Part shown: positions 22,297 to 63,175 of the stretch, one piece after another
Numbering within the stretch: the first letter of the stretch is position 1
Layout: each line of letters starts with the position of its first letter
Assembly: GCA_951406725.2 (NCBI GenBank)
Contig: OX597823.1
Coordinates: 81,530,001 to 81,594,000 of the forward strand
DNA length: 64,000 bases
Direction of reading: 5' to 3'
Source of the DNA: Octopus vulgaris
Taxonomy: Eukaryota
Position numbers and translations under genes: made by a program
Notes under the pieces: model-generated
Told to the model about the DNA's origin: nothing
What the model saw: only the letters and a program-made list of their open reading frames with translations
Database searches by the model: none

Positions 22297-22505
22297 AATG
22301 GTAAGGCAACAAAAGAATGATATTATGTAAATAGAGGAATTTATCTGTAAATATATGTGACAATTATTCGGTAGCCATAATAAGAGAAATTTTACTGATG
22401 GCCGGATAACTGAAGAGATGGTGGCGTGGATTTTCACCCCGACATCTGAAACTCAGAGTTTTATCATGGCTACTGAATAATTATCATATATTATATTTAT
22501 AGATA
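22297..22505 (+). mobile_element. Fold-back HHR-bearing element (family B)
   Basis: 22343-22383 is an inverted copy of part of 22451-22504. The same family recurs at 45537-45723. Flanked by TA/GA microsatellite. Confidence 0.7.
22401..22470 (+). ncRNA. Type I hammerhead-like motif
   Basis: GCCg-GATAA CTGAAGA GATG...CATC t GAAA CTC a GAG TT TTATC-at-GGC: stems I, II and III present with a GUU triplet. One extra or mutated base lies before GAAA (the sister copy has CATCC). Confidence 0.7.
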
Positions 22506-22510
22506 TATAT

Positions 22511-22914
22511 ACTCTTTACTCTTTTACTTGTTTCAGTCATTTGACTGCGGCCATGCTGGAGCACCGCCTTTAGTCGAGCAAATCGACCCCGGGACTTATT
22601 CTTTTGTAAGCCCAGTACTTATTCTATCGGTCTCTTTTGCCGAACCGCTAAGTGACGGGGACGTAAACACACCAGCATTGGTTGTCAAGCAATGCTAGGG
22701 GGACAAACACAAACATATACACACACACCCATACATATATATACATATATACGACAGGCTTCTTTCAGTTTCCGTCTACCAAATCCACTCACAAGGCTTT
22801 GGTCGGCCCAGGGCTATAGCAGAAGACACTTGCCCAAGATGCCACGCAGTGGGACTGAACCCGGAACCATGTGGCTGGTTAGCAAGCTACTTACCACACA
22901 GCCACTCCTGCGCC
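22511..22914 (-). mobile_element. SINE family 1 (young, CpG-rich)
   Basis: Nearly identical to the 1380-1778 copy. Confidence 0.88.
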
Positions 22915-23037
22915 TATATATATATATAAAATAGTAAATAAAAGAAACAAGGAACAAGGAACAAACACAAAATGACAACAATGCAAGTATGTGGTATATG
23001 TAAAGTATTAGCTGATGCTCAAGGAAGAAAAGAAAGG

Positions 23038-23075
23038 TGGTTTTATGTTTTGAGCAAAGCTCTTCTTCAGAAACA
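23038..23075 (-). ncRNA. Decayed minimal hammerhead (Penelope type)
   Basis: Minus strand GTTT CTGAAGA a GAGC ttt GCTC aAAAC aTA AAAC. It differs from GCTC GAAAC GTA only by two CpG-type G>A changes; probably inactive. Confidence 0.6.
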
Positions 23076-23271
23076 GAAGACAGAGGAAAATCCAATTGAA
23101 AAGGAAGATGCAGGAAACCAAATCGCCAATGATTCACATGTGGTTACATATATATATATAGCTACATATACAGATACACTGCCAGATATTAGAATTGTTT
23201 GCAGGCAATAATGTTGTTCAGTCTTAAAGAATCCTTGGAGTTTGTCCCAAATTTAAATTTAAATTTTGCTG

Positions 23272-23311
23272 TTCTCTGATGATGAAAGTGTAATATTCGA
23301 AGCGTTCAGAA
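23272..23311 (+). ncRNA. Decayed minimal hammerhead-like motif
   Basis: TTCT CTGATGA t GAA...TTC GAAgC GTTC AGAA: stem I TTCT/AGAA; one core mismatch relative to GAAACGTTC. Confidence 0.45.
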
Positions 23312-58958: not shown

Positions 58959-60714
58959 ACATATATATATATATATATATATATATATATATATATAATA
59001 TATATATGTACATATATATGTACATATATATATTATATATATATATATATGTACATATATATATTAATATATATATATATATGTACATATATATATATAT
59101 ATATATATATATATTATATATATATTATATATATATTATGTATATATCTATATGTATGTATATGTATATATATATATATATGTGTATATATATATGTATA
59201 TATATATGTATATATATATATGTATATATATATATATAGATAGATTGATAGATATATAGATATATGTATATATATATAGATATATAAAACAGTTGGTATG
59301 TGGGCAAACAAATGACTAAAGTCTTTTAAAAATCAATGTTTATTTTGTTGAGTATTTTTGTAGGCATAAAGTGTTAGCTAAGCACTTTTCATTCATACAC
59401 TGTTATATTATAGCTACATCAGGGAACATTCTATATCTTTTTCAAGTTCTTCAACTAAACATTTTACATTAGTAGATTAAACAGGTATTCATACACACAC
59501 ACACATATATTATATATATTATATATATATATATATATATATATATATATATATATATTTATATTTATATATATATATATATATATATATTTATATATAT
59601 ATATATATATATATATATATATATATATATATGCAAATTTCACTGATGTCTTTGTGGGCTGGGAATTGATAATTCAAGTTTTAGGATAAAAAGAATTAAA
59701 GTGTTGCATTGATAAACAGATATACACAAACTTGTAACATAATGCTTACTAATAGCTAAACTGTGATAATATCATAGTTTGAATACTTAGTGATCAAACT
59801 TCAATGGACAGATTGCTATAAAACATGTCCAGAGGAAATTTATTTGACTGATTAGGTTTTTGAAGAGCTTATATGAAACCAGACTTAGTATTGTATGATA
59901 ATTTGTTGCCAAATTATTAAGGAAATGCACTCCCATATATTCTGATTAATTTAAAAATAATCATATTGATGAATTTAATAAAATAATACATTTATACCAT
60001 TATTGAGCTGGTGTTTGAAAGATAACCATTTACCATTTACTTGTTTCAGTTATTAAACTGTGACCATGCTGCAGCACTGCCTTGAAGGATTTAGTCAAAC
60101 AGATTGATCCAAGAACATGTCTGGTACTTACTCTAACAGTTTATATTGCTGAACTGCTGTGCTGTTGGTATGTAAAGAAGCCAACACTAGTTGTCAAGCT
60201 AGTGGGGGACAAACACCAAAAAAAATACACTCATATGCTTGCATACACACACAAACACACACACACACACATACACACACATACACACATGTTGACAAAT
60301 GACCGAAACCTTTGTTAATATGACATGCTTGATAAGAAGACCTAACAAGCCAAGTGAAATCGTAGTCATGGCAAATATTGATGTCAGGCAATTGGCACTC
60401 ATGCTGTGGCATGTAAAAGCACCCATTTCACTCTTGGAGTGGTTGACATTAGGAAGGGCTTCCAGCCATAGAAACCCTACCAAATCAGACTGGAGCCTGG
60501 TACAGCATACCAGCCCTGGTCAAATTGTCCAACCCATGCCAGCATGGACAACATGTTAAATGATGATGATACACACACACACATACAGTGGGCTTTTTTC
60601 AGTTTCTTTCTAGCAAATCCACTCACAAGGCTTTGGTTGGCCTGAGGCTAGAATAGAAGACATTTGCCAAAGGTGCCATGTGGTTGGACTGAACTTGAAA
60701 CAATGTGGTTGGGA

Positions 60715-61147
60715 TACTCTCTACTCTTTTACTTGTTTCAGTCATTTGACTGCCACCATGCTTGAGCACCGCCTTTAGTTGAGCAAATCGACCCCAGGAC
60801 TTATTCTTTGTAAGCCTTGTACTTATTCTATCAGTCTCTTTTGCCGAACCGCTAAGTTACAGGGACGTAAACACACCACCGTCGGTTGTCAAGCGATGTT
60901 GGGGGGACAAACACAGACACACAAACATATACACACACATATATACATACACACACATATATATATATATATATATACATATATACGACGGGCTTCTTTC
61001 AGTTCCCACCTACCAAATCCACTCACAAGGCTTTGGTGGGCCCGAAGCTATAGTAGAAGACACTTGCCCAAGGTGCCATGCAGTGGGACTGAACCTGGAA
61101 CCATGTGATTGGTAAGCAAGCTACTTACTATACAACTATGTCTGCAC
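60715..61147 (-). mobile_element. SINE family 1
   Basis: Full-length copy. Confidence 0.85.
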
Positions 61148-62824
61148 GTATAACTTGACAAAAGTTTCTTCATAAAATTCTGACAGAAGGTTTTGGAATA
61201 AATATGAACAACTTAAATTAATCCTTTTTGTATCATAGAACCAGAAGCTGCATACAATTTGGTATCATGTGTGAATGGTTTTATGCTATTTGATTTGTCT
61301 TCAATGCCGGCTCAGTAAATTTCAAGGAAGAGATATGATATGTACCTATAAGAACATAGCTGAGATTTCCATCTGTGATCAAGAAAAAAAGTTATATACA
61401 AAATACAGTATAACAACACTGCAAATATTGAACAATATTCCAATAAGATATAATTGATTATCTATGAAGTGTATTGAGTCAAAGGTAGTCAATTGATTTA
61501 AGGATTTATTTCATGTATAATAAGGAAGAATATTAAATTTCGAACATGTCTTTAATAAACTTTACAGATGAGTTGGAATTTGCAAATTTTATAATAAAAT
61601 AGGTACTGATATACTTGATTAAAAAGACAACAAAATTTAATTATCTAAAATTAATTTTAACTAACTAAAAATTAATTAACCCTAATGATGAGAATAATCC
61701 AAATTATTTATCCTGGTGGAAAGAAAAGAATAGGGGAGACAATCCTGGCATTTTAATTCATTAAAATTACAAGCCTTTTGCATTGAAATATAATAATGAA
61801 GGTAGCAAGCTGGCAAAGTCATAAGGATGCTGGGTAAGATGCCTAATGATATTTTGTCTGTCTTTGCATTCTGAGTTCAAATTCCACTGAAGTTGTCTTT
61901 AGCTTTCATCCTTTTGGGGTTGATAAAATAAGCACCAGTAGAGAACTGGGGTTGATGTAATTGACTTATCTTTCCTGAATTAAAATTGATTAAACATGAA
62001 TTAGTGTGTTGTGAGTCTCCTCTTTAGCAACATACCAACAACTCCAGGCATGTTTTGGTCTTATCAGACCTCACTAGCAAAACATAGTTTAACTATGGCT
62101 GTTTGATTTTAGAATGACTTACGATATACAGAACCATTGTGAACGAACACACAGCAGCATTATAAATTAAAAGAATAGTTTTAAAAAAAATACCCAGACT
62201 TTGGCAATTGTCCATAAAATAGCTGAAGTTATTATAAGAGAGTCTTAAAATAATTCTGAAGAAGTTCAGTTATTTACATTTTAGCTCCTCCCACTGATGC
62301 ATATATTTACCTCATCTTTTGATAATGTATCTACAAATACTCCTCAAATAAAATACTTTTCTTATTTCATGAAAGATATATTGTTTACATTAAAATGGAA
62401 GAAACACACTAAGACATCTCCTAAAGATGGGGTAGTTGAAAGTTCAAGTTTTTACTAATCTTAGATCTTGTTTTCTTGCTACTAACATCTTTCATTGTAT
62501 GATACTATTTTATATATATATGTGTGTGTGCGTGTATATATATATATATATATATATATATAAATACATATAATATATATATATGTGTGTGTATATATAT
62601 ATATGTGTGTGTATATATATATATATATATATAAATACATATAATATATATATATATGTGTGTATATATATATATATAAATACATATATATATATATATA
62701 TTATATGTGTGTGTGTGTGTATATATATATATATATATATATATATATATATATATATATATATATATATAAATACATATAATATATATATATATGTATA
62801 TATATATATATACATATATATATA

Positions 62825-63015
62825 GAAATTAAATAAGGGTAGAAATTGATATTAATCAATTAAAACCAGTGGCCTAGTATATTTTTAAAAAATTGGAAGA
62901 TTAAAAATTTTTTTACACACAAAATTTAGAGGACTGACCACTAAAAGTGGACAGTCTATATGCTAGATGTAGACGTCAAATCACCACTTTTAGTGGTCAG
63001 TCCTCTAAATTTTGT
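62825..63015. mobile_element. Short fold-back element related to the end of the 534-bp unit
   Basis: Start aaataagggt..aattgat...accagtggcctagta resembles ataataagggtgagagaattagatac...ccaagtggcctagtg in the unit. Perfect 32-bp inverted repeat at 62919-62950 / 62984-63015. TA on both flanks. Confidence 0.6.
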
Positions 63016-63134
63016 ATATATATATATATATATATATATATATGAACATACTTATATGGTAACTGCTGCATTTGTTGAGTATATAAGCAGTTAGGCTGCT
63101 TATTTCTCTGAAGACTACCAGAATGATGTAGATG

Positions 63135-63175
63135 CCTCTGATGAGAACCCAATAAGGTTAAAAAATCGATTAAGG
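63135..63175 (+). ncRNA. Decayed minimal hammerhead-like motif
   Basis: CCT CTGATGA GAACC caataa GGTT aa AAAATCGATTA AGG: stem I CCT/AGG, palindromic AATCGATT; the C-G of CGAAA is lost. Confidence 0.45.

Follow-up and report, generated by a model that had tools for sequence, protein, structure and literature searches.

An AT-rich 64-kb window of the 2.8-Gb Octopus vulgaris genome (contig OX597823.1, positions 81,530,001 to 81,594,000) contains members of seven families, here called R and A to F, that are high-copy, short, hammerhead ribozyme (HHR)-bearing Penelope-type retrozymes of an already known kind, belonging to the non-long-terminal-repeat (non-LTR) retroelements. In the fold-backs formed by these elements the two inverted arms have their 3' ends outward, and two-armed insertions from six families combine a short end with a long ('tail') end in 83 of 85 cases. 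The explanation of such paired-end insertions that we consider probable is that the enzyme of a Penelope-like element (PLE) nicks a (TA)n target on both strands and, starting at two fixed sites, copies in opposite directions a single RNA of unit length, self-cleaved and probably circular. For family R a more specific proposal is put forward tentatively, with slightly less than an even chance of being right: two-directional rolling-circle reverse transcription, in which a dimeric Penelope enzyme primes from both strands of a TA site, starts at two different fixed points of a single RNA circle generated by the ribozyme and runs many rounds each way. The features visible in the sequence are HHR conservation, sharp 3' ends, two end sites, outward arms, one haplotype per array and PLEs with the same ends; cleavage, RNA circles and the enzyme partner are predicted from them.

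The family R array

Family R forms a two-armed array at positions 26701–29858 of the window, on both strands, with a 534-nucleotide (nt) unit. The minus arm (26701 to ~28294) comprises about 3 units and has its short end at unit position ~161; the plus arm (28295–29858) comprises about 2.9 units and has its long end at unit position 292. The descriptor identifies a type I HHR at 28431–28506 (+) with a predicted GUC cut after 28502, and the HHR cores are located at 28435, 28969 and 29503 on the plus strand and at 27997, 27463 and 26929 on the minus strand. Stem III is palindromic (ACAAUUGU). The arms are 99.6% identical, the unit is strongly folded (z = −7.3), and no open reading frame (ORF) of 120 amino acids lies inside the array. 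A genome search with R yielded 942 first-look candidates and 256 matches, with arms reaching up to 13 units. The R unit is mostly covered by contigs of four runs of unrecorded kind, which we guess to be RNA, and one contig spans the predicted cut site. Summed R depth differs about 100-fold across those runs, and the three re-examined runs are also rich in sequence of a short interspersed element (SINE) and of family A.

The array lies between two (TA)n tracts, 26177–26711 at the short end and 29859–30728 at the long end. Such 200–900-nt TA tracts also flank other young R insertions (L243, L245, L246), while the tracts of others are 10–60 nt long. Beside the array, a 582-codon fragment of a reverse transcriptase (RT) of the long interspersed element type (30813–32561, minus strand; RVT_1, E 1e-30) sits between the long-end tract and another very long one at 32563–33099. 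At one R insertion (L252) the predicted HHR cut site is only a few bases away from either inner end, giving a short palindromic junction. Elsewhere (L356:600–2350) a two-armed tandem array with a ~594-nt unit is weakly similar to family R and has a decayed HHR-like motif.

Pairing of short and long arm ends

Each fold-back family has two 3' end sites, spaced by ~130 (R), 64 (A), 126 (B), 90 (C) and 88 nt (D); overall the spacing is 47–130 nt in non-coding families and 37 nt in the protein-coding PLE described below. All 16 two-armed insertions among the 21 R loci examined, which were picked among the top matches because they comprise several units, end at ~161 on one arm and at ~292 on the other. 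Short and long ends are likewise paired in the classifiable insertions of families A (9/9), B (7/8), C (10/11) and D (18/18); one A, one C and three D loci that could not be classified, and two duplicate loci, are left out of these counts. An unrelated 359-nt family, which came from the fixed-position sample described below and whose flanks are known from L286 alone, shows the pairing in 23 of 23 insertions (~181 vs ~225) among the best 150 of its 169 matches. At L286 (2097–4770) this family forms a second young two-armed retrozyme array, with a GC-richer unit, a GUC site and 2128 first-look candidates. All five two-armed elements of the window follow the short/long rule.

In five family B insertions the inverted arm is pure tail, without any sequence in common with the direct arm; neither arm was therefore copied from the other. 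This result bears on the possibility that the inverted arm arose by self-priming (fold-back) on an antisense template or nascent cDNA rather than by a second target priming. Self-priming was put forward for rotifer PLEs from palindromes at inversion junctions (PMC3846280), would likewise give one haplotype on both arms, and agrees with the symmetric junctions seen here at L237, L245 and several D copies. However, it cannot derive a tail-only inverted arm from the direct arm, and it is also opposed by the asymmetry of most R arm junctions and by the finding that either orientation may carry the longer arm or the tail. We regard it as improbable.

It is still harder to credit that assembly or polishing errors created the fold-backs and homogeneous arrays, or that these represent DNA transposons with terminal inverted repeats, akin to miniature inverted-repeat transposable elements (MITEs). 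Long AT tracts and inverted repeats are indeed hard to assemble, and the short fold-backs have a superficial likeness to MITEs. However, the arms of the old fold-backs in families A and B are just 87–91% alike and single-unit variants persist in the arrays. Inner ends vary freely while outer ends keep the short/long rule in six unrelated families, most A, B and C copies are single-armed, and the two ends of an element differ, in place of the identical fixed inverted termini that every MITE copy should possess.

One haplotype per array

The window array and 20 R loci from the top matches provided 182 unit pieces, which were compared with the commonest letter of each column. Variants were scored where at least three pieces cover the position, leaving aside junction edges as well as any piece that carries a large deletion. 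The comparison yielded 42 locus–variant pairs present in every covering unit (32 of them on both arms), 24 confined to a single unit and one that is partly shared, at L255. The window array has two fixed variants unseen in the other 20 loci. The arms share their haplotype in 16 of 16 loci (chance ~0.125 per locus), and in 4 of the 16 this is the commonest type. The 42 fixed variants against one partial variant indicate that each new variant passed through a single unit that was then multiplied. Such a monomer bottleneck is accounted for most simply by a cut-and-ligated monomer circle.

Alternatively, the template may be a linear monomer or a short uncut multimer that is copied from the same two start sites, with arrays produced by end-to-end RT jumps or by DNA-level expansion. 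Local tandem amplification is the model of a 2026 preprint (10.64898/2026.07.22.740005), and the one partly shared variant also counts in favour of this alternative. In contrast, adjacent units join precisely at the predicted cut site, where recurrent indels are absent. Gradual DNA-level expansion should pass single-unit variants to neighbouring units, and the ratio of 24 single-unit variants to one partial variant therefore argues against it, as do arrays without any single-unit variant that already have 5–8 units (L236, L248, L249). We consider a linear template of this kind unlikely, also after weighing the two further observations in its favour that are given with the proposed mechanism.

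Microsatellite target and fold-back frequency

The predicted microsatellite target is borne out by the 3' ends, 147 of 156 classifiable ones abutting TA, CA or TG repeats (alternating purine–pyrimidine, RY) compared with 15.4% of random positions. By family, the RY run is present at 26/29 (A), 26/28 (B), 25/28 (C), 28/28 (D), 29/30 (E) and 13/13 (F) ends, the F count leaving out 16 unclassified ends. TA is also found at the 5' junction of three of five single-armed R insertions, which favours a pre-existing target. Some family C ends have extra TAG repeats, and the family B short end is followed by (AC)n where the B template itself continues ACAC; part of the RY repeat at insertions may therefore be generated at priming.

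An inverted arm with its 3' end outward is located 5' of the anchored copy in 10/30 (A), 8/29 (B), 12/29 (C) and 21/30 (D) loci, and in none of the 30 loci sampled for each of families E and F. The fold-back architecture, originally thought to be common to the families, is thus confined to five of the seven (R, A, B, C and D). At one F locus (L190) a second copy lies tail-to-tail past a TA run and is read as a separate insertion.

Hammerhead motifs in the window and the genome

The original prediction implied more HHRs than in shuffled sequence, and the excess is large. A strict type I descriptor gives 7 matches in the window vs 0.03 in 100 block-wise local dinucleotide shuffles, and a descriptor permitting the PLE-type unpaired base gives 8 vs 0.06 (50 shuffles). 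These eight are the six in the 534-nt array and those at 22410 and 42020. For sites at which the window copy fails the descriptor, the genome was searched with each and up to 30 best loci were aligned; the family samples comprise the best-scoring 30–40 loci per family. In families C (58712), E (63138) and F (23070, minus strand) the HHR is complete in most relatives, whereas the window copies are damaged. With the six array copies counted in, the window contains 12 HHR motifs from six families, in agreement with the predicted dozen or so. In the seventh family (D, 62826) the HHR is present in longer members and absent from the window copy. Among the individual sites predicted earlier, 22410 (earlier 22401) and 42020 are intact and 41748, 23070 (earlier 23038), 58712 and 63138 are decayed or damaged. 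The site at 23276 (earlier 23272) is ruled out as an HHR, the core being found in 0 of 8 alignable relatives; it is a chance CTGATGA in an unrelated low-copy repeat (23276–23310, plus strand) outside the system.

Families R and A to F all have the elements of the minimal type I HHR: the CUGANGA and GAAA core, an NUH cut site, stems I and II and a palindromic stem III. Stem I has 4–5 base pairs (bp) and stem III is palindromic or near-palindromic in every family, a form expected to act as a dimer (PMC4209133). The stems are unrelated between families, as predicted, and blastn within the window finds zero matches between them. Over five families, 23 of 1334 non-CpG HHR core cells (1.7%) depart from the column majority, compared with 1368 of 27479 elsewhere (5.0%), a divergence possibly inflated by homopolymer misalignment. 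Stem covariation, also anticipated, is found for family C and its relatives only: among 15 family C-like motifs, 6 pairs are changed on both sides vs 1.1 in shuffled data, with 0 of 500 shuffles reaching this number. The 15 rows are hand-picked and related, with one off by a base in stems II and III, so that the result rests on few independent events.

All seven families are dispersed, high-copy repeats, with 942–2840 first-look candidates each, which are not copy numbers. Sixty fixed-position 10-kb stretches (599,800 bases) served as a background sample and contain 18 intact motifs in 11 insertions vs 0.8 in 10 shuffles, mostly from families absent from the window. Extrapolation to the genome gives ~80,000 HHR motifs, a loose estimate because 7 of the 18 sampled motifs lie in one array. 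If this holds, such ribozymes number on the order of 10^4–10^5 in the genome, in many families. The window is not exceptional: its 64 kb contain 3 insertions with an intact HHR, compared with 11 in the 600 kb of background (P = 0.11). Bare CTGANGA occurs 49 times vs 25.8 in shuffled sequence and was not used as evidence. The best 150 of 377 matches in an Rfam scan of the window (E<=10) are microsatellite matches, almost all to microRNA models, with no hammerhead family among them. A scan of the window for the U3-A8 core gave a single unconvincing match.

Relation to protein-coding PLEs

A GIY-YIG profile search for PLEs returned 150 scored matches from 6136 candidates, and many of these fall in a 781-codon ORF with RVT_1 and GIY-YIG domains. 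The terminal repeats of this PLE carry a U3-A8 hammerhead variant ~100 nt before the end; the element has TA flanks and a 37-nt tail, and at L351 its long arm stands opposite a short inverted arm in an asymmetric fold-back. A second RT and GIY-YIG PLE family (17586 candidates) ends in sequence homologous to HHR family F. Its 3' terminus matches F at 10 of 30 loci (E<0.05, coding strand), with 0 matches in 20 shuffles, and an HHR word common to both is visible in 27 of 30 loci. Both PLE proteins examined have a CX4CxxC linker, which has tentatively been tied to (TA)n targeting (Craig et al. 2021, PMC8557442).

No ORFs are present in families R and A to E, and tblastn detects no PLE ORF remnant in the window, RT and GIY-YIG ORFs being present elsewhere in the genome. 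The families were originally described as a long-running system of non-autonomous, ribozyme-bearing retroelements of differing age. They are ribozyme-bearing, non-coding and retroposed, they end in (TA)n, and their arm identities, from the near-identical array to the old A and B fold-backs, reflect differing ages. Non-autonomy is clear for the tandem-unit families; F, in contrast, may be no more than a PLE relative truncated to its 3' end. The system as such had already been described. The expected link of HHR clusters to autonomous PLEs was found, among the PLE loci sampled, for F only.

C-like HHR elements next to PLEs at L347 and L359 are separate insertions, being on the opposite strand or past the PLE end and a minisatellite, and PLE fragments near A and B members (L036, L079, L085) are on the wrong strand or side to belong to the same element. 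Canonical PLEs have one ORF. At L349 a 479-codon upstream frame without a clear Pfam match (1268–2707, plus strand) overlaps the 781-codon frame (2626–4971) in another phase, and similar upstream frames occur at L346–L348. By eye, distinct protein-coding PLE families end in distinct hammerhead-like motifs, some of them canonical and others with altered cores (L354, L306, L362, L365, L357, L291, L036, L359).

Proposed mechanism

The array would be transcribed as a multimer, which the HHRs, likely dimerised via the palindromic stem III, would cut to monomers; these would in turn probably be closed into circles by ligation. Both strands of an AT-rich target would then be nicked by a PLE RT-endonuclease, which published work predicts to be dimeric. 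Of the two resulting 3' ends, one would prime at the short site, the other at the long one. Each cDNA would extend over part of a unit up to ~13 units, and the distal ends would be joined by repair. Old copies would decay later, fastest at CpG. Circular templates were already proposed for PLEs and retrozymes (PMC4209133, PMC7229834). In the anole Poseidon PLE (Frangieh et al. 2024, PMC11167929), the tail is likewise delimited by two RT start sites inside the element, downstream of the HHR, cleavage affects both strands at AT-rich DNA, and both strands are extended in vitro. If the two-directional rolling-circle proposal for R is correct, that one step would account jointly for the tandem, inverted and one-ended-tail structures of PLEs.

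Several observations weigh against this scheme. Of 37 inner (5') ends of R arms, 3 fall no more than 11 nt from the cut site (0.76 expected, P = 0.04), a mild excess that hints that some templates were linear. HHR mutants of the anole PLE had no effect on insertion in vitro, which together with the inner ends favours a linear template, and the same start sites served both strands of its target without strand difference, unlike the strict pairing here (PMC11167929). The circular minimum-energy fold of the R monomer lacks HHR stems I and III. All families were sampled from the best-scoring loci, and the C and D queries contained the tail, so that their anchored arm is long by selection and only the other arm is informative. 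No second end site or tail was seen in the E and F samples. Finally, no homologous protein-coding PLE for R or A to E was present among 56 + 30 sampled PLE loci, a small part of the 6136 and 17586 candidates.

Comparison with known systems

The families share with animal non-LTR retrozymes (PMC7229834; 10.64898/2026.07.22.740005) a non-coding make-up of tandem units that each contain a single type I HHR, a low GC content, strong folding and co-occurrence with PLEs, and a circular template and PLE mobilisation were already proposed there; retrozyme units of up to 972 bp are known. The HHRs here differ in being of the minimal PLE type. Two-armed arrays, two fixed end sites, microsatellite-bounded ends and per-array haplotypes are not part of the description of animal retrozymes in the portions of these two sources consulted.

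Like the Neptune/Nematis-type endonuclease PLEs (PMC8557442; PMC3846280), R, A, B, C and D have a one-end tail, an inverted 5'-truncated arm and an AT-rich target. Unlike them, R and A to E have no ORF, tails measure 47–130 nt vs 30–40 nt, both arms can be long multimers and the one-end tail is near-obligate (83/85). The minimal HHRs of metazoan PLEs (PMC4209133) also have a 4–6 bp stem I, a palindromic stem III, the U3-A8 variant, an unpaired base beside stem II (here in several families), many families per genome and opposite-strand pairs 100–700 bp apart, but not the long stem II domains (35–50 nt) of R, C and D. Circular RNA has been demonstrated for the animal retrozymes and low in vitro activity reported for the metazoan PLE HHRs, whereas RNA circles and ribozyme activity are predictions for the families considered here.

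Twin priming of L1 elements also gives an inverted arm with its 3' end outward. It acts on a linear RNA, where one site is the fixed 3' end and the other varies in position internally; it produces no multimers, and in this the R arrays differ.

Already published are minimal HHRs and their occurrence in opposite-strand pairs, the view of tandem retrozymes as non-autonomous PLEs, inverted 5' copies, tails at one end, the bias to microsatellites, the two RT start sites and the notion of a circular template. The addition made here is quantitative insertion-level evidence on an open mechanism, together with new members of a known system. A search by title and start of abstract, in which subscription papers were thinly covered, found no report of near-obligate pairing, per-array haplotypes or cephalopod retrozymes. 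PMC8557442 counts the mechanism of tandem and inverted PLE insertion among the open questions. In the portions consulted of the two papers that propose a circular template (PMC4209133, PMC7229834), the model had no insertion-level evidence, part of which family R supplies. The young, protein-free 534-nt R unit also offers a small in vitro substrate beside intact PLE ORFs of the same genome. For annotation this is an abundant repeat class, and a repeat annotation of octopus published in 2026 uses neither 'ribozyme' nor 'retrozyme' in its main text (PMC13282606).

Other elements in the window

The four predicted fold-backs are present, at 22297, 41496, 45538 and 62826, all with their 3' ends outward, and some of their details needed correction. 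The family A fold-back at 22297–22505 has the long end on its left (minus) arm and the short end on its right (plus) arm, which carries the intact HHR core 22410 (+). Adjacency to TA/TG repeats, predicted for each fold-back, is poor for this element, the left end adjoining (AG)n and the right end only a short TATATA. The second family A fold-back (45538–45728), with the short end left and the long end right, retains only the 3' half of the HHR. The family B fold-back (41496–42130) begins at 41496, not at 41641 as first given. Its left (minus) arm has a decayed HHR at 41748 (−) and a ~125-nt tail reaching 41496, and its right (plus) arm has the intact HHR at 42020 (+) and a short-site end before (AC)n. 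The family D fold-back (62826–63016; long end left, short end right) is 5'-truncated before the HHR, which in longer relatives lies upstream of this truncation point; it belongs to a different family from the nearby HHR at 63138.

The latter is part of a single family E copy (63059–63245, plus strand), whose decayed core has G12 mutated and whose 3' end is at an RY repeat. Family C is represented by about 1.1 units of a ~511-nt repeat (58402–58955, minus strand) without an inverted arm, its long end at 58402 against (TA)n and its HHR core at 58712 lacking 2 nt at the cut site. The family F copy is also single (22929–23149, minus strand) and has a CpG-decayed HHR core at 23070. Partial tandems occur in C, D and E, and none were seen in the family samples of A, B and F.

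Microsatellites are plentiful across the window, as is one highly abundant SINE-like repeat. This two-part repeat is found at 22515–22910 and in at least five other places, frequently in the HHR elements' own TA runs. Two further fold-backs without an HHR core, at 3505–3713 and, near TA tracts, at 51166–51228, are possibly truncated ends of further families.

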